A stretch of 64,000 nucleotides of DNA. Origin: Candidatus Moraniibacteriota bacterium. GTDB taxonomy: Bacteria; Patescibacteriota; Minisyncoccia; Moranbacterales; GCA-2747515. The position numbers and the translations under genes were made by a program. The notes beneath the pieces were generated by a model. The model saw nothing but the letters and a program-made list of their open reading frames with translations. It had not been told where the DNA came from and searched no databases. Shown piece by piece: positions 8,531-37,155 of this stretch. How positions within the stretch are numbered: position 1 is the first letter of the stretch; each line of letters starts with the position of its first letter. The DNA is taken from contig JBBQZC010000001.1 of NCBI GenBank assembly GCA_038208115.1, positions 13,977 to 77,976 on the forward strand, written 5' to 3'.

Positions 8531-9919
8531 TTATTTGATTACTTTTAATTTCTCAAGTGCCATGAGGACGTGAATAGAAAAAACATCAAGAAATTCCAAT
8601 TCTTGTGACGCAATACTGTTATTTCCCTCAAACCCAAGAAATAGAAAACCTTTACATGAATTGTCTGCAATAAATGGAACTACTACAAAATAACTCAAAT
8701 TTCCATTTATATTAAAGTGGGCAATATCATAATATTCACATGAGGAACTTATTGTTCTTTGTTCTTTAATCATTTTTTTGATGAATGCAATTTTTTGCGA
8801 ATCCACTCTTCCAAAAACATTCATTTTTGTCTTATGATATCCCTCTCCAAATACCAAACTAAACAGACCCTTGCTATCATATTTATATATTAAAGCCACA
8901 TTTGCTTGCGAAGAAGTCATGGCAACATTTGTGATATGTGCAAAAAGTTCTTTTTTGTTTTTTTTATAATTTGAGTGCTTATCTATTTCCAATAATGCTG
9001 CAATTTTTCTATTGGAATAACCTACTTGCTCGTAAGCATCGATGAGATTATCTCTAATTTTTTGTTGCAACTCACTTTGAACTACGTGATATTCCTCTTG
9101 ACTTTTTTTTAGATCATAAAACAGTAAGCGATATGGATCCATAAGTCCGATTTCTAAAATGGCCTTATAAATCAAAAGAAATGAAATGTATTTTAGAAAA
9201 TGTCCAAGCATATTCTGGAAATCATAAACATTAATATATCCAGTGAAAATTAACTCTGAAATTACTTTAACGATGAGAGCGAGAGAAAGAAGATTATATA
9301 CTGAAGAATCAAATAATACTTTCTTTTTATAGAGCAATGCGATAGAAACAACAAAAATACCAACAATTACATATTCACTAACTACTTTGAAACGAGTAAG
9401 TCCAGCTGTTTCGGTGTACATATTTGGAAATACATGCCAATAAAATATAGATAGCAACATCAATATTACAATTATCATGTACGTCAGAAATATATAATTT
9501 GCATTGAGTAGAATCCTCCATTGATCTTGAACAGATTTTTTTCTTAAAATAATAAACGCTCCAATAAATGAAAATGCCTCAAGATAGCGTGCACTGATCC
9601 AGAGTTGTGTAGGAAGATTGGTCGTGTGATCCATAAATATATTCATTCCCTTATAACTCAAAACATGTAGCAAATCTAAGCCACCGACAAAAAAATAACC
9701 AATTCCCAGAATAAGCAGATAGTAGTTGCTCACAAAACTTTTTGACGACCATGCGACAGCAAATATGCCGAAAGATATGACTACGGTGAAAAGTTCGATG
9801 AGAGAATGAAATAATAAATAACTATGCAAACTGGTCAATTGTAATACGAAACAGCTCACAATAATCCCTAGTGGGAAAACAAGTTTTCTTATTGCTTTTT
9901 TGTCTGCATTCATATGCAA
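8531..9919 (-). CDS. Membrane sensor protein: multi-TM (MASE-like) N-terminal domain + cytoplasmic GAF-like domain, no obvious output domain
   Basis: About 8 predicted TM helices in residues 1-260, then a GAF-like region (FSLVFGEGYHK...YFVVVPFIADNSCKGFLFLGFEGNN). There is no kinase, GGDEF or HTH. Confidence 0.5.
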   Translation of the reverse strand: MHMNADKKAIRKLVFPLGIIVSCFVLQLTSLHSYLLFHSLIELFTVVISFGIFAVAWSSKSFVSNYYLLILGIGYFFVGGLDLLHVLSYKGMNIFMDHTTNLPTQLWISARYLEAFSFIGAFIILRKKSVQDQWRILLNANYIFLTYMIIVILMLLSIFYWHVFPNMYTETAGLTRFKVVSEYVIVGIFVVSIALLYKKKVLFDSSVYNLLSLALIVKVISELIFTGYINVYDFQNMLGHFLKYISFLLIYKAILEIGLMDPYRLLFYDLKKSQEEYHVVQSELQQKIRDNLIDAYEQVGYSNRKIAALLEIDKHSNYKKNKKELFAHITNVAMTSSQANVALIYKYDSKGLFSLVFGEGYHKTKMNVFGRVDSQKIAFIKKMIKEQRTISSSCEYYDIAHFNINGNLSYFVVVPFIADNSCKGFLFLGFEGNNSIASQELEFLDVFSIHVLMALEKLKVIK

Positions 9920-10132
9920 AAATGTGCTCAGTGGATAAATTTTTTTTGCGATTTATGCAACTAAAACCAAACGTTATCATTAAATATGAATCAGATTACA
10001 ATATCAACAAACACTACAAAATCTAATACGCGATCATTTAACAAAAAATATAAAACAAACCATATTCCACACAATACAAATCGCATCGAATTATCAAATT
10101 AATAAGCTGTCACCGCATTACACAATTAACTA

Positions 10133-15926: not shown

Positions 15927-16156
15927 GTTATGCACATGTTATGCACTTTTCTCATTTTCTTTTTTTTCGTTTCTCAAATACGCCCGCATTTTCGCTAAAA
16001 AAAATGATGTAATATACATCATTATTTTATCTCATATTATTTTTGCTAATATATATTCACATTTTGTGTGAAAGTACGATTTATATAAAAATCAATCCCT
16101 TCTGGAATTGACACGACGTGATATTTTATTCTTCTAGAGTAAACTGATATATATAC

Positions 16157-16492
16157 TCAAATATCACTCTTATCTTGCGTATTTTTGATTCTTTTGATCC
16201 CTCTCATCCCCAATATAATCAAACAAATAATAAGAATTTTTAAGAAATAGTGTCCACCCAGATCAATAAAATTCCGAGTCAAAGGTGTAATATGACCAAC
16301 AGCAATATGGATGACGATGCTCATGGGCAAAGTCAAAAATATCCAATTTCGTTTGGGTATGTGGATACCACATTTTTTAAATATCCACGACAGCAGCGGG
16401 GAAAGCATAAGAACTCCCAAAAAAGCCAGTGCGAGATCAAACACAGCAAATTCAAATATGCGAAATTGTCTGAGAAATTCTATTGAAATCAT
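16157..16492 (-). CDS. Small integral membrane protein (hypothetical)
   Basis: 111-aa ORF with 3-4 hydrophobic helices and a His-rich HIAVGH stretch. Confidence 0.35.
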   Translation of the reverse strand: MISIEFLRQFRIFEFAVFDLALAFLGVLMLSPLLSWIFKKCGIHIPKRNWIFLTLPMSIVIHIAVGHITPLTRNFIDLGGHYFLKILIICLIILGMRGIKRIKNTQDKSDI

Positions 16493-29304: not shown

Positions 29305-29491
29305 CGATTTATTGTTAATTTTTACAGATATTCATTTAACAACAGTATACCATAAAAATCGTGAAATATGCGTAATTTGATGTCCTTGTTTTCTTTCGCG
29401 TATACGCATCTCTAATTTATTATTTTGCGAGAAAACACAAAATTCCCCGCAAAGTGAGCCATTTCTGACTCCATACTCATTCCTGGATATG

Positions 29492-29537
29492 ACTGTTCAA
29501 GGTAGCCCTCACGAGGAGATTTTTACCTTGAACAGTT
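29492..29537. repeat. Perfect 13-bp inverted repeat (hairpin) at the island boundary
   Basis: ACTGTTCAAGGTA-n20-TACCTTGAACAGT between the AIPR-like gene stop and the CARDB gene start. Confidence 0.5.
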
Positions 29538-29695
29538 TTGCAAACCACGCACCAATACGGCGGTTGGGCTTGTGCTTAAGTAACATATTCAGTTATCACC
29601 TACACTTTATCATTCATCTTAACTATGTCTAATTAAGGAGCTTTTTTTTATTTTTTAACATAATTAAATTAGTTTTTCCTAAATTTTGCCATATT

Positions 29696-30904
29696 TTACC
29701 TTTTATTTCTAACCAACTGATCCATCTTCAAATCCAAAGTTGTCCAAACTAAACGACTTTTTGCAAATGTTTGCGGCTCATAGCCAACCTCCTTTAATGC
29801 CTTTTTATAAGGTAATGCAATATCTTGCAAGTTCTCTTCTAAAAATTCTGATGGATTTTTTGAAAACTTCAAAATACCATTATCTTCAACTAATAAATTT
29901 CTAAAAGATGCAAAGAGAGGATAAATCCAACCAGCTGGGATTGCATAATCAACTTCATCATCAATATATGGCAAAAGAACTCTTCGTTGTTTAACTACAA
30001 GATCTCCACTTCTTTTCTCTATAGTCCTAAAGTCATCTCCTAAAATCTTTGGCATATTTAGATTAATATTATCCCAAAGTTCAACAATATCCGGCAACAA
30101 CCTTGTATATTTTGCAACATTTTTTTCATCAAACATTTTTTCAAATGTTTCCAAAACCTTTTTTTTACTTGAATATGCTTCAATTGGTACATTTTCACCT
30201 TCAATTGGATATTTATCAATATTATATGCAACCAAATATCCAACCAGATCTGCAACTTTAATTTTTTTAACTCTTCCGTCATCATCAGTCTCATATTCAG
30301 AATATGATATTTGATTTTGGTACGGCTTACCATCTACAGCAACTTTAATATCATCAAATACATTCATCATATTATACAAAGTTTCTTTTCTGACCTGCAA
30401 TGCTGTATTTCTACTTTCCACAATATCTGTAACAGACTCTCTTGTATTAAAACCAACCAAAAATTCAATCTTTAAATACACCTCATCTTTAGCCAACTCA
30501 TCAGTGCTATCTGAAAAATAGTCTTTTAAAACATCGTATGTATGACCACCATCTGCAATTCCATGAAAACTTCTGTTATTTAATGTGATTGTAATTGATT
30601 GATTTTTATTATCAAAAACAAAATCATCTGCAAGCATCAAAAGCCCTTTATTACGATAAAAAAACTGATCGGGGCTATCATCAAGAGTCTCGCGCATTGC
30701 TTTCCACGCAAGTGAGCTTCTACGAGGTTCTCGTGGATTTATTGCACGAAATGCATCTAATTTATCAGCTTGATTTATAAATGCCATCGCATTCACAGTA
30801 ACAACAAATGACTTAATTCCTTTCTTTTCGTGACCAGGCACTACAGACAATTTCTTGACTGCATCATTATCAAAAACTGGTAACGTAATTACAACATCTT
30901 TCAT
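29696..30904 (-). CDS. AIPR-like (abortive-infection phage-resistance) family protein, putative
   Basis: 402 aa. The N-terminal region has NPREPRRSS...YRNKGLLMLADD...HGIADGGHTY, reminiscent of AIPR/DGQHR-type Abi proteins. Family assignment is from memory and not verified. Confidence 0.35.
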   Translation of the reverse strand: MKDVVITLPVFDNDAVKKLSVVPGHEKKGIKSFVVTVNAMAFINQADKLDAFRAINPREPRRSSLAWKAMRETLDDSPDQFFYRNKGLLMLADDFVFDNKNQSITITLNNRSFHGIADGGHTYDVLKDYFSDSTDELAKDEVYLKIEFLVGFNTRESVTDIVESRNTALQVRKETLYNMMNVFDDIKVAVDGKPYQNQISYSEYETDDDGRVKKIKVADLVGYLVAYNIDKYPIEGENVPIEAYSSKKKVLETFEKMFDEKNVAKYTRLLPDIVELWDNINLNMPKILGDDFRTIEKRSGDLVVKQRRVLLPYIDDEVDYAIPAGWIYPLFASFRNLLVEDNGILKFSKNPSEFLEENLQDIALPYKKALKEVGYEPQTFAKSRLVWTTLDLKMDQLVRNKR

Positions 30905-31138
30905 AATTAATATCTTAAAAAATAAAAAATTCGCACCTACAAAATGCGAATAAAGACACTAATCAATTTATATTTATAATATAAACTCTCTAGATTGATA
31001 ATATCCCCATTGCCGATCTTTCGATACAACACTTTGATAGTTTCCACTAATCTTTAGGTACAATGCTATCATATCACAGCAGTCCTATTTTGTCAATGTT
31101 TTATTAAAGAGAAAAAGTATGTTAATCCGTGCATCTCA

Positions 31139-31981
31139 TTACAAAATCTGAAAATTATCCTGGTTCATGGCGATATGACAGGTCATACACAGAGTTACAA
31201 GATTTTCTAGATCATTTGAATCCGAATAACGTCTATGCACAAATAAGTCTTTCCCAAATATTTCTCTATGTTTTTCTCTTGTAATCCCACAAATAATGCA
31301 TTTTTCTCCATCTCTTCGTATCGCTTTTTCTCTATTATTTTCAAAGTTTTTCTCTAATTGTTTTTGTAACAGTCTTTTTCTGACATCTGGCCTTCTAGAA
31401 TATACAAGATTCTTTTTTTTTATTGTTTCTCCATTCTTTTGATGATATCGACGAATTTGCTTCTTATGTTCTTCGCTTTTGCCATAACATTTAATGCACA
31501 CCCCCTTCGATCGATGTTTATATTTGGTACTTTCACAAATTTTGCAAAATTCATTTTCAATTGACCATTTTTTCTTTTTATTATTCAAGATTCTAGTATA
31601 TATTTCAGGATATATTTTTTTTACAAGTCTCGCATTTTTTCCTAAATAATCATTTAATTCTGTTATGCTACCAAATGTTTCAATTCCTCTGTTTTCTAAA
31701 TTTTTTACTACATCACTTATACTTTCTTTTTTTTTATTTAAATTACTCTGAAAATGCACTTTTTTAATTTTTTTGAGTCGATCCTTAATTGCTTCAATCA
31801 ATACCCATTCATATTCATACACAAAACCACTTTTGTTCCATTCGCATATTATTTGTTTTTTGATTTCTGCAGATATTTTTTGACGGATTCTTTCCCTTGT
31901 TACGCCAAGTTTCTCTCCGATAATTTGATATGTTTCTCCATTACAATATAATTTTACTAAACTTTTTTCAGAATCGCACAT
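31139..31981 (-). CDS. HNH endonuclease with N-terminal sigma-70 region-4-type HTH
   Basis: N-terminus LGVTRERIRQKISAEIKK (HTH), CxxC pairs (CKICE...CIKCYG) and an HNH core CIICG...H...N...LCMTCH. Confidence 0.6.
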   Translation of the reverse strand: MCDSEKSLVKLYCNGETYQIIGEKLGVTRERIRQKISAEIKKQIICEWNKSGFVYEYEWVLIEAIKDRLKKIKKVHFQSNLNKKKESISDVVKNLENRGIETFGSITELNDYLGKNARLVKKIYPEIYTRILNNKKKKWSIENEFCKICESTKYKHRSKGVCIKCYGKSEEHKKQIRRYHQKNGETIKKKNLVYSRRPDVRKRLLQKQLEKNFENNREKAIRRDGEKCIICGITREKHREIFGKDLFVHRRYSDSNDLENLVTLCMTCHIAMNQDNFQIL

Positions 31982-32046
31982 ATAATTTTATCTAAATTAT
32001 AATCTTGATAAATTTTAACATTTATTATACTTATTCTCAACACAAC

Positions 32047-33087
32047 CTATTTATTCAAATCCAAAAAATCCCTATGCGCTTTCTTTGCTTTTTCCTTATC
32101 AACTCCAAGATAATACTTGCACGTTGTATCCAATCTCTCGTGACCAAGGATCTCTTTGACATGCACGATTGGACATCCATTGAAAACAAGATTTGTCGCA
32201 ACTGTATGGCGAAGAATATGCGGTGTGAGCTTTTTATGGATTTTTGCCAATCTGCGGTGTCTTTCAAAAAATCGCCACACATCATCCCTACGCAAACGAT
32301 CATGCGGTTTTTTAGTTATAAACACAGCTTCATGCATGTCCGTGCGCCTTTCCAAATATCTCTCCAACCATTCCAATGATCGTTTTGTAAAAAACACTGT
32401 TCGTTCTTTACTACCTTTACCTATGATCTTAGCTTCCCGTCTTTCCCAATCGATGTCCCTACGATTAAGTGACAATGTTTCTCCAATTCGCATTCCTGAA
32501 CCCAGCAAAAGCTCAACAAGCGCACGAAAGCGAATATCATACCATCGATCTGTTCTGATTGTTTTCAAAAATGCATCTATTTCTTCTTTTGTGAGATAAA
32601 TCACTTCTCGTTTATAGCGTTTTGGTGGCCGGATCTGCTTTGGGTGCAGCGTTTTGATCTTTAAAAAACCTCCGCAATATCCAAAAAAACTTTTCATAGC
32701 ATATACGACACTTGCAATACGTGCAGGACTCAAACCACGATCCATCATGAGCCTTTTTAATCTCACAAACTCTTGTACATCATAATACGCGACCGGTTTA
32801 TCACCAATATCGCGCACAAAGCTTTTAAGACTATCTCTGTATTTTATAATAGTCTGTGGTGAAAAGTTCAATTCATAGCGTGCATATTCCAAAAAATCTT
32901 CAATAAGTTCCGTCATTGGCTTTTCATCATTTTTTCTAATGTCGGAGAATGCATTTCTTTCAACGACAGTTTTTGGATCATTTTGCATTTCTACATGTTC
33001 ATATGTCATAAACAAAAAAACCATAGTCCAAAAACTACAGTATCTATTGCCTAGCAAAGTATATGAACCAATATTTGGCTCTATCAC
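32047..33087 (-). CDS. Tyrosine recombinase/integrase (XerC/D-like)
   Basis: C-terminal catalytic box HILRHTVATNLVFNGCPIVHVKEILGHERLDTTCKYY (R..H..R..Y), an ARG box RIGETLSLNRRDID, and an N-terminal SAM-like core-binding domain. Confidence 0.85.
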   Translation of the reverse strand: MIEPNIGSYTLLGNRYCSFWTMVFLFMTYEHVEMQNDPKTVVERNAFSDIRKNDEKPMTELIEDFLEYARYELNFSPQTIIKYRDSLKSFVRDIGDKPVAYYDVQEFVRLKRLMMDRGLSPARIASVVYAMKSFFGYCGGFLKIKTLHPKQIRPPKRYKREVIYLTKEEIDAFLKTIRTDRWYDIRFRALVELLLGSGMRIGETLSLNRRDIDWERREAKIIGKGSKERTVFFTKRSLEWLERYLERRTDMHEAVFITKKPHDRLRRDDVWRFFERHRRLAKIHKKLTPHILRHTVATNLVFNGCPIVHVKEILGHERLDTTCKYYLGVDKEKAKKAHRDFLDLNK

Positions 33088-33096
33088 AAACTTTTG

Positions 33097-33120
33097 TGGT
33101 TAGTCCTACTCTATAAATGA
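33097..33120 (-). other. 3' half of the 16S pre-rRNA processing stem (pairs with 34862..34885)
   Basis: CACAAACTTTTGTGGTTAGTCCTA is the near-exact reverse complement of 34862-34885 (TAGGACTAACCACAAAAAATTGTG). This is a classic RNase III stem flanking 16S. Confidence 0.6.
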
Positions 33121-33212
33121 GTCACGAATACACATTATAAAAGATGTGTAAACGACCATTATGGGTTTAAGAATTTGAGATGACTCTCAACTCTTTTCAC
33201 CTTTACTCCCTA

Positions 33213-34702
<1,490 letters not shown>

Positions 34703-35267
34703 AACATGTCTTGATTTTCACTATGATTTGTATGAATCACCAGAATCATAGAAGTTTCTAAAAGAAACTTTCAATAGTTTGAACCTTTAGTCCGAAGACT
34801 AAATTTTTTTGACTCGATTTATAGATCAGGACACTATAATAAATTATAGTGACATTATTTTTAGGACTAACCACAAAAAATTGTGATTTAGTATATTTGC
34901 TAGTTGTCATCAAATACTGTTACTAAAGTATTTGATCAACGTATATTCTTTTGTTAAAGTTCTTGTTTTCTCATTTCTCCCTACGAGAAAGAAAAACACA
35001 TCTCTAACAACTTTATCATATGATGAAAATTTTGTCCAGAGATGTATCATTCTTTCACCCTCGTGAATGGAGTCAACGATACCGTATTCATTTCTTAACA
35101 CTAAAATCAATTATACACGGCTTTAAAATCCTGTCAAGTGCGACCTAAAATTATGAAAAAATAATTGGAATGATGATAAATTTTGAGATGACTTTTGTTG
35201 ATATTTTTATCCATTATTACTATCTTTTATTGAAAAAAGAAAACACAATATCAAAATAAAAAAATTA

Positions 35268-35333: not shown

Positions 35334-36077
35334 TCAGCCGGTCATCAATTTACCAACATCTTCAACAGACATGTTGCAAAGATTGCCTACATCAGAAGAA
35401 ATATTTTCAGAGTCGACAATACCACAACTCTTCTGATACGAAACAATGCGAATGAGATTACTGATTGCTTCTGCAAGTGCATCTTCGTTTCCACTGGTAT
35501 CGATCGAAGAAATGGCATCATGTAAATCTATGAGAGCAACGGATGATTGTTTCAAGCGAAGAATTTCTGCATTCTTTTTGACAACAATGGTCTGAAGATT
35601 TTCAATGCCTTTCTTGCGAGAGACGGCAATCCCAGCTGATATCTTCTGCTGTTCACTTGTAACTTTCAACTGCCTTTTCAAACTTTGATTTTCATCTACA
35701 AGTTTCTCAATCCGCACCTGATCTTTTTTGCGCCCTTTCTTCAACTTCTTGATCTCGGCGACAGACTTGGCATCTGCATCAAAAAAAGATATGACGTTGC
35801 CATACAGTTTCTGCACTTGTGCATTCTTACCGGCGAGATCGGCTTCAGCAAAGATTTGCTCCGGTCGCTTTGCGCTGGAAACACATTTGATATCAAGTGC
35901 ATCAAGAAACTCCTTCGGTGCATTCTCGAGGATCTCATCACGCTCCTTATCCGTCATTTGTGCCAAATTTAAAGTCATTGACGCAGCAAATCCTTTCTTT
36001 TTTTTCTCTTTTATAACCACTTTTATGTATTCTTCCACAGTTAGAGGTCTTCCACAACCACACGGACATGTTGGCAT
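35334..36077 (-). CDS. Coiled-coil protein with N-terminal CxCxC zinc-ribbon-like motif (paralog 1)
   Basis: MPTCPCGCGRPL start, then ENAPKEFLDAL...KRPEQIFAEADLAGKNAQVQKL...SFFDADAKSVAEIKKLKK and a long heptad-rich region. Paralogous to 36310..37155. Confidence 0.5.
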   Translation of the reverse strand: MPTCPCGCGRPLTVEEYIKVVIKEKKKKGFAASMTLNLAQMTDKERDEILENAPKEFLDALDIKCVSSAKRPEQIFAEADLAGKNAQVQKLYGNVISFFDADAKSVAEIKKLKKGRKKDQVRIEKLVDENQSLKRQLKVTSEQQKISAGIAVSRKKGIENLQTIVVKKNAEILRLKQSSVALIDLHDAISSIDTSGNEDALAEAISNLIRIVSYQKSCGIVDSENISSDVGNLCNMSVEDVGKLMTG

Positions 36078-36309: not shown

Positions 36310-37155
36310 CTATTTACCATTTGCTTCGACGCCTGCATCTTCCTCGGGAGATTTCTCCTGTGAGGTTTCTGCGGCGAGAGTTTCATCAGCGGCGACATCG
36401 GAATTATTGTCTTTCTGTTGCATCGCTACAGCAAGAGCTTGAATCCTTCCGATTTCTCCAAAAAGAGAACTTTTGTTTCCGCTGGCATCCATGGCAATGA
36501 CGGCATTTTGCAGTTTTGCAAATGAATCAGCAGTCGACGCCAGAGTGACAATTTCCCGACTCTTTTGTTCAACCGTGACCTGTGAATCGCGGAGATCCTG
36601 AAATGCTTCGGTCAGCAATAAATTCTTCTCCGCAACCTGAACACCGAGTCGATTATTTTGATGAATCTGGTGATCGACATCTTCTTGAAGTCGACGGATT
36701 TTATCGGTTTGTTCTGCATTGACTGCCTCAAGCTTTTTCTTTTCTTTCTTGAGCTTCTTTATTGCAGCCGTGGATTTCTCATCCTGAATGAAGAATCCAT
36801 TGACAGAATTCTGCAGGTGTGTAATCTGAGCAGCATTGCCGGCCAGTTCAGATTCAGCCAAAATCCATTCTGGCCGTTTCCTCTCATTAACTTTGACAAC
36901 GGTGTATCCGAGTTTCTTTAACACCTCCTCTGGCATACTCTTGAGAATCTCCTCGCGAACCTCATTCGGCATTTTTGCCAGGCGTTTTTTCAAATCCTCG
37001 AAACCAATCTGGTCACTGCTTTCCCGTGCCCGAGAAACGCCGCCAAAGAGATCCTCAAAAGCGTCCGGAAAACCATCAATTATATTATTGAATCGATCTA
37101 CGCGCCTTCCGCATACAATCTCCGAAAGCTCAGCTAAAAATCGCCTTGAATCCAT
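36310..37155 (-). CDS. Coiled-coil protein (paralog 2 of 35334..36077)
   Basis: Shared blocks with paralog 1: KSMPEEVLKKL...KRPEWILAESELAGNAAQITHL...FFIQDEKSTAAIKKLKK, then a coiled coil and an acidic tail. Confidence 0.5.
   Translation of the reverse strand: MDSRRFLAELSEIVCGRRVDRFNNIIDGFPDAFEDLFGGVSRARESSDQIGFEDLKKRLAKMPNEVREEILKSMPEEVLKKLGYTVVKVNERKRPEWILAESELAGNAAQITHLQNSVNGFFIQDEKSTAAIKKLKKEKKKLEAVNAEQTDKIRRLQEDVDHQIHQNNRLGVQVAEKNLLLTEAFQDLRDSQVTVEQKSREIVTLASTADSFAKLQNAVIAMDASGNKSSLFGEIGRIQALAVAMQQKDNNSDVAADETLAAETSQEKSPEEDAGVEANGK

Follow-up and report, generated by a model that had tools for sequence, protein, structure and literature searches.

Genomic islands and prophages integrate into the 3′ end of tRNA or transfer-messenger RNA (tmRNA) genes, with P4-type integrases and tandem accretion as familiar features. 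Single-recombinase Xer systems with an adjacent dif site (XerS/difSL, XerH/difH and archaeal XerA) represent a second described arrangement, and Xer recombination is exploited by the integrative mobile elements exploiting Xer (IMEX). In candidate-phyla bacteria, self-splicing introns and homing endonucleases occur in 16S rRNA genes, and the rRNA genes are unlinked. A 2025 paper (PMC12540744) regards even ffs (4.5S RNA) as a novel location for an attachment (att) site. Our literature search found no report of integration at the 3′ end of a 16S gene. Here we analyse a 64,000-nt stretch of a Candidatus Moraniibacteriota genome (GCA_038208115.1, contig JBBQZC010000001.1, positions 13,977 to 77,976; hereafter the window), in which the 16S gene is followed by a tyrosine recombinase gene, an HNH gene, an AIPR-family gene and a LOOT RNA gene. 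We lean towards the reading that the recombinase and LOOT form a conserved 16S-linked backbone that comes from, or is part of, a family of elements integrating at the 16S 3′ end, and that this backbone is immobilised here and holds a horizontally exchanged cassette of HNH gene, leader RNA and AIPR gene.

The locus resembles tRNA and tmRNA islands in that, in the window itself, an integrase gene adjoins the 3′ end of a stable-RNA gene, and in that, in its relatives, direct repeats duplicate this 3′ end, restoring the gene, and tandem arrays carry variable defence and mobile cargo. It differs from them in its target, the 16S 3′ terminus with its processing trailer, in the length of the repeat (105–150 nt), and in a recombinase that is Xer-like and near-ubiquitous in the clade; moreover, the distal repeat is missing in the window. 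By comparison with the single-Xer/dif systems, the recombinase belongs to the same family (199 bits against the XerA model), its gene adjoins a presumed palindromic site, and foreign DNA accumulates there, whereas it scores under the equivalog cut-offs, no GC-skew switch marks the site, the units carry their own copy of the recombinase, and the repeats are far longer than the 28-nt dif.

The 16S gene lies on the minus strand at 34702–33214 (RF00177, 1414.9 bits, model positions 1–1533) and is colinear with the model over 1489 nt, with no intron and no insertion in the Rfam covariance-model scan. It is preceded by a promoter-like site (TTGACA-16-TATAAT, 12/12) at 35137–35110 and enclosed by a processing stem, in which the 26-nt leader strand (34862–34887) is an inverted match, at 92%, to the 3′ strand at 33083–33108 in the trailer module, all on the minus strand. 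The genes that follow 3′ of 16S, again all on the minus strand, encode the tyrosine recombinase, a helix-turn-helix (HTH) and HNH protein, the AIPR protein and a CARDB-domain protein predicted to be surface-located. No tRNA was found in the 64 kb by ARAGORN and no 23S or 5S rRNA by the Rfam scan, in which LOOT is the only RNA besides 16S.

The recombinase (320 aa; 33009–32047, minus strand; PF00589) is the only integrase in the window and has a host-like GC content of 0.38. Its catalytic domain scores 139.1 bits against a gathering score of 27.1, and the catalytic hexad is intact, with R174, K198, H264, R267 and Y299 invariant and H290 kept in at least 90% of 30 aligned homologues. The spacing of these residues (24, 66, 3, 23 and 9) is Xer-like, judged by that of XerD. 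All three NCBIfam Xer equivalogs give scores under their cut-offs (XerA 198.9/220, XerD 174.9/329.6 and XerC 171/335 bits), and the integron-integrase model TIGR02249 reaches 94.7 bits against a cut-off of 265. At E<1e-40 there are 956 homologues, the best 120 of which are 66–90% identical, and many homologues are labelled XerC or XerD of Candidatus Moranbacteria. We place the start at ATG 33009 because the homologues are 310–320 aa long and both the gene caller and the closest relative begin there; this codon lies 205 nt past the 16S 3′ end and about 74 nt past the processing stem. A previous reading made without database searches (the sequence-only reading) had put the start at 33087, 10 nt from the stem, but that GTG is an artefact of open reading frame (ORF) extension and falls inside the processing-stem strand. 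Abutting the ATG is a conserved hairpin with a U-tract, terminator- or attenuator-like (33041–33014, minus strand; folding z −3.3), which is preceded by an A-tract and keeps its pairing through compensatory changes in four related loci (L020, L011, L012 and L018; the prefix L denotes such loci throughout). Transcription from 16S into the recombinase would therefore need read-through of a terminator-like structure.

The association of this gene with 16S extends far beyond the window. A metagenome survey seeded with the recombinase-family alignment returned 80 loci, and in each of the 50 that could be judged the recombinase is preceded, at a distance of no more than 450 nt, by the 3′ end of 16S, either real (25 loci) or copied (25 loci), indicating that the recombinase always travels with 16S 3′-end/trailer sequence. 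In 25 non-redundant loci the genuine 16S 3′ end lies 200–300 nt upstream, and the linkage holds down to 47–53% identity of the recombinase and 74–77% identity of 16S; the gene is also found 3′ of 16S in Moranbacteria GW2011_GWC2_40_12 (74% identity). Judged by this distribution, the recombinase is a conserved 16S neighbour and not recent cargo. The 16S gene is unlinked from 23S in each relative looked at. Metagenome contigs often start 100–600 nt upstream of the recombinase (for example L021, L023, L028, L034, L053, L054 and L057), and contig breaks at the 16S end and trailer are expected if this sequence is repeated or shared between strains.

The 16S 3′ terminus together with AGGGAG constitutes the sequence CACCTCCTTTCTAGGGAG (33206–33223, minus strand), an imperfect palindrome of the form CTCC-N7-GGAG. 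Such a palindrome is as expected of a tyrosine-recombinase core, and in our reading it is a candidate recombination core. The core opens every duplicated trailer copy in the relatives (65 copies in related loci) and occurs as a single copy in the window with up to three mismatches allowed. The 16S 3′ trailer module (33056–33225, minus strand), which is the unit repeated in the relatives, is the sole window match of an nhmmer trailer profile (72 bits). In the relatives, direct repeats of 105–150 nt on the same strand reproduce the last 6–14 nt of 16S and the complete trailer with its processing-stem strand. Thus L011 contains a 104–105-nt repeat, 99–100% identical, at 9822–9925 and 16149–16253, which encloses the recombinase; it consists of the last 14 nt of 16S and 90 nt of trailer with the processing-stem strand, its second copy lies 6.3 kb downstream, and the unit that it bounds holds the recombinase, DpnI, a Rep_G2P gene and a second integrase. 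In L012, six trailer copies within 12 kb bound co-oriented segments of 1–6 kb with 1–5 genes each, and all of them pair with the 16S leader; the same array is found in L013, L014 and L026, which derive from other samples. Several cassettes in the relatives end in a terminator followed by a partial core. Taken together, the repeats follow the pattern of islands at tRNA genes, here at the 16S gene.

The copies are not confined to genuine 16S genes. In 25 loci, CACCTCCTTTCTAGGGAG and trailer-like sequence precede the recombinase while the DNA upstream is not 16S; these non-16S copies are preceded by a conserved arm of about 100 nt with a promoter-like TTGC-N17-TAGAAT, and the left edge of each lies within or just before the core. 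Distal copies of arm, core and trailer are present in L022, L023, L047, L073, L085, L087 and L100. The recombinase lies inside repeat-bounded units in L011, L022, L023 and L100, and is the only gene of a 1.84-kb unit in L073. On the 25.7-kb contig Ga0209749_1001161 (L048 and L068), two arm–core–trailer–recombinase units stand in tandem 19 kb apart, their recombinase regions being 70% identical at the nucleotide level and their integrase regions 87% identical. A second integrase, 33–43% identical, occurs within a few kilobases in 34 of the 40 relatives whose downstream flank measures 3 kb or more. Its strand varies without exception with what precedes the recombinase. In loci with real 16S directly upstream, the second integrase shares the recombinase strand and stands at the far end of the unit; in loci with only arm and core upstream, it is encoded on the opposite strand, and a conserved HTH/primase-like mobile element comes next, composed of an HTH gene and two further genes for products of about 170 and about 810 aa. 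This dichotomy was drawn between a first set of loci (L015, L018, L029, L036, L048, L054, L061, L063, L067, L068, L070, L071, L072 and L097) and a contrasted set (L011, L023, L030, L042, L047, L050, L052, L059, L062, L090, L098 and L100).

Further features of the arrays and several rejected candidate sites are recorded here. Same-strand trailer copies, up to six in an array (L012 8778–20942; L011 9822–18264), are 75–97% identical to each other, as if from different donors, and the segments between them hold a 120-aa ORF, a recombinase with IS1595, Rep and an integrase, a 262-aa ORF, a HAD hydrolase, or five small ORFs. For the window, a search for att repeats around 29.3–33.2 kb gave chance-level AT-rich matches only; the best candidate, a 19-nt inverted pair flanking AIPR (29644–29662 and 30911–30929), is of low complexity and was rejected. 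A dif-like palindrome past the recombinase stop codon (31984–32015) is conserved in no relative and overlaps the HNH promoter, and the 3′ end of the recombinase gene was discarded as an att site for neighbouring integrases after no repeats were found in 50 loci.

The second conserved element of the backbone is the LOOT RNA gene (29570–29456, minus strand; RF03000). LOOT was reportedly introduced by Weinberg and colleagues in 2017 as a candidate small RNA (sRNA) from uncultivated lineages. The window copy scores 64.2 bits against a gathering score of 46.4 and covers model positions 1–121 with all four hairpins; our own covariance model, R1, gives 103.5 bits. It thus agrees with the described motif in all four hairpins and differs in being given a genomic context, downstream of a 16S-linked recombinase. 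A perfect 13-bp hairpin at 29492–29504/29524–29536 is stem 2 of this RNA. In 12 further loci, with recombinases of 47–91% identity, LOOT is located 0.4–5 kb downstream of the recombinase on the same strand, and in a thirteenth, L088, it is on the opposite strand (Rfam and own covariance model). Every locus in which LOOT was found either has 16S immediately 5′ of the recombinase or lies on a contig that starts too close for this to be judged; none of the loci with arm and core but without 16S upstream yielded it. It lies inside repeat-bounded units in L023, L100, L085 and L087. Both elements considered, the recombinase–LOOT backbone is, from these comparisons, common to Moranbacteria and more distant Patescibacteria. 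The idea that LOOT is a diverged trailer copy was rejected, as the two share no sequence similarity and Rfam does not match the trailers.

The LOOT block (29431–29575) is 89% identical in nucleotides to that of L104, the relative from GCA_017973795.1 whose recombinase is 91% identical in amino acids and falls in the same 90% recombinase cluster. Conservation between the two runs about 25 nt past the Rfam 3′ end of LOOT (window 29431–29455, CACTTTGCGGGGAATTTTGTGTTTT; L104 5292–5316), suggesting that the transcript may exceed the Rfam model. In L104, moreover, a clear promoter (TTGACA-17-TATAAA) precedes LOOT by 7 nt.

Between the two backbone elements lies a variable slot of 2.47 kb (32046–29576, minus strand), where the closest relatives have unrelated genes. 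In the window it contains the HTH-HNH gene, a promoter–leader–terminator RNA and the short AIPR gene, and its GC content of 0.27–0.33 is the lowest in the window, compared with about 0.37 elsewhere. L104 aligns to window 33258–32062 (16S end, trailer and recombinase) at 81.6% nucleotide identity and again to 29575–29431; between these anchors it has 3.97 kb with unrelated genes of 226 and 1022 aa versus the 2.47 kb of the window, and the homology stops again after LOOT. L106 has the same cassette as L104, with small ORFs, a small terminase subunit and an integrase in the place of LOOT, and in L020 the homology stops at the recombinase stop codon, after which a DUF6804/UvrD-like gene follows. 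From the breaks in L104 and L020 we delimit the variable unit as 32046–29576, from the recombinase stop codon to the LOOT 5′ end. A synteny comparison of about 100 related loci found neither HNH, AIPR nor any other window gene in them, and there is no repeated or attC-like site at 32046 or 29576. In the relatives, the 6 kb downstream of the recombinase contains DpnI, ThaI and MutH-like nucleases, methylases, Abi_C/AbiGi and ABC-3C, and also IS1595, Rep, PrimPol, small terminase and many integrases. Presence/absence variation and deviant composition thus apply to HNH and AIPR, and not to the recombinase or LOOT, both of which are conserved. By this comparison, HNH and AIPR are a replaceable accessory cassette between recombinase and LOOT.

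The first gene of the cassette encodes a 280-aa protein (31981–31139, minus strand) with a sigma-70 region 4-like HTH domain (PF04545, 24.8 bits) and a zinc-ribbon/HNH nuclease domain, and is located 1.2 kb 3′ of 16S. A promoter-like site with TG (TTGAGA-17-TAAAAT, 10/12) precedes it at 32040–32012, minus strand. The HNH motif is readable in the translation (CIICG...VHRRY...N...LCMTCH), PHROG HNH families match to 1.5e-13, and PADLOC-DB v2 gives weak matches only, to DpdF and Csf1, through the zinc/HNH region. Relatives show the 16S introns and homing endonucleases known from candidate phyla, in the form of a group I intron with a LAGLIDADG ORF, and share the unlinked 16S and 23S; by comparison, the window HNH lies outside rRNA, has an HTH domain and is paired with AIPR, not with an intron.

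Directly 5′ of AIPR is a leader unit (31096–30925, minus strand) composed of a promoter, a structured RNA of about 140 nt and an intrinsic terminator. The promoter-like site (31096–31068, minus strand; 11/12 with TG) is stronger than the HNH site, and the terminator (30951–30929, minus strand) stands just before the AIPR start. The leader (window 30925–31096; L005 1297–1464; L009 945–1109; L010 about 90–260) is about 80% identical in nucleotides between the window and L005, above the protein identity; in L009 the promoter and the terminator are retained, as is a GNRA-capped hairpin that shows compensatory changes, and in L010 the layout is again a promoter, some 140 nt of RNA and a terminator. 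The leader has no Rfam match, and tandem repeats finder (TRF) detected no tandem repeats in 30925–31096. A promoter, a small structured RNA, an intrinsic terminator and an abortive-infection (Abi)-type ORF are the layout of ToxIN type III toxin–antitoxin/Abi systems. The AIPR locus shares this succession and differs in that its leader RNA has no tandem repeats and AIPR is not of the ToxN/AbiQ type. The leader may be an attenuator or an antitoxin-like RNA.

The AIPR-family protein is short (402 aa; 30904–29696, minus strand) and matches PF10592 at 85.1 bits against a cut-off of 25, over profile positions 4–302 of 308. It has only 7 homologues in 5.8 billion proteins, with the invariant motifs N..R and DGGHT. 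Makarova et al. 2013 (PMC3632139) describe AIPR/AbiU1/COG1479 proteins as forming an Abi family that has a nuclease domain of the ParB superfamily and is linked to restriction–modification systems. The two motifs fit placement in the ParB-like nuclease clan. The window protein resembles this family in a Pfam match well above the cut-off, in a nuclease-gene partner and in a variable, mobile-element-rich slot; it differs in its 402-aa form, its very rare subfamily (7 relatives), a conserved leader RNA with terminator, and the lack of a PADLOC match. A marginal PHROG Abi match was obtained, distant AIPR relatives are found on plasmids, and a sequence search of solved structures yielded nothing useful. 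In L005, whose AIPR is 67% identical, a homologous HTH-HNH gene (37% identical) again precedes AIPR, and the pair is flanked by a UvrD/GajB-like helicase gene and a Macro-domain gene, with no recombinase or 16S beside it; in L009 (57% identical) a different HNH protein precedes AIPR. A peptide-pattern search for the AIPR cassette in metagenome contigs found nothing. A defence or addiction role of HNH and AIPR is plausible, given the family annotation and the context.

On the reading to which we give somewhat better than even credence, namely a 16S-linked recombinase–LOOT backbone that comes from or belongs to an element family integrating at the 16S 3′ end, the following course of events may be proposed. 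In relatives the backbone behaves like an integrative element targeting the 16S 3′ end: repeats bracket recombinase units there, in four loci together with LOOT, and such units can form tandem arrays. The recombinase would exchange strands at the palindromic core CTCC-N7-GGAG, and the element would bring a replacement trailer, whereby 16S maturation survives integration. In the window only the 16S-proximal junction is present, without a distal repeat or second integrase, so the backbone is here most likely an immobilised or domesticated remnant. The cassette, self-contained within the 2.47 kb between the recombinase stop codon and LOOT, would have been gained horizontally, and, because close relatives bear unrelated cassettes at the same boundaries, exchange probably proceeded by homologous recombination between the conserved flanks. 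It may constitute a two-nuclease defence or addiction module, with AIPR as a ParB-like NTP-binding or nuclease sensor, HNH as the DNA-cutting effector, and the leader and terminator keeping AIPR expression low. A more far-reaching version, which we put forward tentatively and at less than even chance, takes the Xer-like family as the integrase of undescribed integrative elements of Patescibacteria, with the 3′ terminus of the single-copy 16S gene as att site, a replacement trailer whose processing-stem strand would help to restore a working pre-rRNA 3′ end upon insertion, tandem arrays and LOOT as hallmark RNA; the window would then be a domesticated copy with HNH, AIPR and leader as cargo, and LOOT would possibly control recombination or replication of the element.

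Several observations weigh against the backbone reading. No second copy of the core, trailer or arm was found anywhere in the 64 kb, and no second integrase either in the 32 kb downstream of the recombinase or elsewhere in the window; mobility of the window copy is therefore not shown. Viral contigs yielded no close homologue of the recombinase (the best relative is 37% identical), and no circular contigs were found. The survey was seeded with the recombinase and thus says nothing on the frequency of 16S genes that lack it. The repeats could come from the 16S-linked recombinase or from the second integrase near it, and the recombinase itself could be a resident housekeeping gene, given its host-like GC of 0.38, extreme conservation and likeness to XerA and XerD. 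As for the cargo, the HNH gene scores 20.5 bits against PF01844, just under the cut-off of 21.4; AIPR, like the recombinase, has no match in PADLOC-DB v2 at E≤0.01; the AlphaFold2 model of AIPR (predicted local distance difference test score 79.6) has no fold match in PDB; and the proposed leader structure is drawn from three or four sequences.

The strongest competitor builds on the housekeeping possibility. It holds that the recombinase is a resident Xer protein, a chromosome-dimer resolvase syntenic with 16S by chance beside a defence-island hot spot, that LOOT is an ordinary sRNA, that HNH and AIPR sit in a flexible island, and that the repeats were made by the integrases of unrelated elements. 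The best family matches of the recombinase are indeed XerA, XerD and XerC, its 956 very similar homologues often bear the source names XerC or XerD, and it combines a host-like GC content with being the sole integrase in the 64 kb; most relatives have a second integrase, next to arm and core where 16S is directly upstream of the recombinase, and the cassette edges coincide with conserved flanks as in replacement-type flexible islands. All this is set against scores under all three Xer equivalog cut-offs and against a GC skew that stays negative across all 64 kb and does not switch near 33 kb, and hence no terminus or dif-like position at the site, a statement that covers the 64-kb window; a dif site may lie elsewhere in the genome. 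The recombinase also lies within repeat-bounded units in L011, L022, L023 and L100 and is the sole gene of the L073 unit, two diverged copies stand in tandem on one contig, and a 16S-trailer copy always precedes the gene, even without 16S. We therefore regard a resident Xer as unlikely, while granting it real weight. An integron-like platform, in which a resident cassette integrase uses the 16S end as primary site and collects 1–5-gene cassettes with trailer-derived sites, expressed from the rRNA or arm promoter and including HNH and AIPR as one cassette, is improbable. Relatives such as L012 do place a tyrosine recombinase beside short co-oriented cassettes parted by a repeated site, in segments of 1–6 kb and 1–5 genes; several cassettes end with a terminator and then a partial core, and the NCBIfam XerA model is described as "tyrosine recombinase/integron integrase". 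Yet the recombinase is not IntI, as its 94.7 bits against the cut-off of 265 indicate, it lies within the array instead of diverging from it, the repeated sites are 105–150-nt 16S mimics and not attC-type hairpins, no such site is present at either edge of the window cassette, and HNH and AIPR have their own promoters.

The sequence-only reading had proposed that recombinase, HNH and AIPR entered as one recent island that the 16S stem and a terminal hairpin delimit and that is transcribed together with the pre-rRNA; we consider this very improbable, the feature it noticed being real but mis-parsed. Its description holds in that the three ORFs are co-oriented on the 16S strand and adjoin 16S, that no tRNA, 23S or 5S accompanies 16S in the 64 kb, and that the processing stem exists, 33083–33108 pairing with 34862–34887. 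HNH and AIPR are also low in GC, integration at the 16S end occurs in relatives, and the suggested accessory cargo is borne out for these two genes by relatives with unrelated genes in their place. A single insertion is contradicted by the presence of the recombinase at the site in every relative examined and of HNH and AIPR in none of them, by a homology break that falls at the recombinase stop codon instead of 5′ of the gene, and by the occurrence of the HNH and AIPR pair without the recombinase in L005. The comparison with relatives for conserved core genes accordingly turned out differently for the parts: the recombinase is conserved, HNH and AIPR are not. The 13-bp hairpin, taken as the distal boundary, is real and does sit at the edge of the variable segment, but it belongs to the conserved LOOT as its stem 2 and is not free-standing. 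Co-transcription is unlikely because HNH and AIPR have separate promoter-like sites and a terminator precedes AIPR inside the unit. The label of a mobile-element-like region is apt for a recombinase-linked variable locus at the 16S 3′ flank, less so for a window with no att repeats or second integrase; similarly, the search for att sites revealed no direct repeats flanking the window region, whereas the 16S end and trailer are duplicated around recombinase units in relatives. A match of AIPR to a defence model was not obtained with PADLOC, a result that the sequence-only reading had itself named as counting against it, and a takeover of the 16S–23S spacer is not shown, 16S and 23S being unlinked in the relatives.

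If the backbone reading proves true at the level of the family, the 16S end, which belongs to the most conserved locus and one that is single-copy in these small genomes, would be a landing pad for mobile DNA; the rule of integration at tRNA and tmRNA genes would extend to rRNA, and the frequent assembly breaks just downstream of 16S would be explained. For the orphan LOOT RNA, this is a first consistent genomic context, and its function thereby becomes testable. In addition, a well-delimited variable slot in unculturable organisms offers a place to seek new defence genes, the HNH–AIPR–leader combination being one candidate. Arrays with copies of the 16S 3′ end could confuse the annotation of rRNA operons and binning, and call for caution.

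Other features of the region touch these subjects less directly. In contrast to the uninterrupted 16S of the window, 16S genes of some relatives have insertions near the 3′ end, namely a group I intron with a LAGLIDADG ORF and weak matches to group II domains (L002/L012 7950–9800; L011 9270–9704; L052; L062). The 16S promoter is immediately preceded by two genes at 35334–36077 and 36310–37155 on the minus strand, whose products are paralogous coiled-coil proteins of 247 and 281 aa; they match no Pfam family and were found in no related locus. ORFs of at least 100 aa between 1.6 and 59 kb are mostly on the minus strand, and this bias, together with the uniformly negative GC skew, indicates that the window fits a single replichore, far from both origin and terminus.

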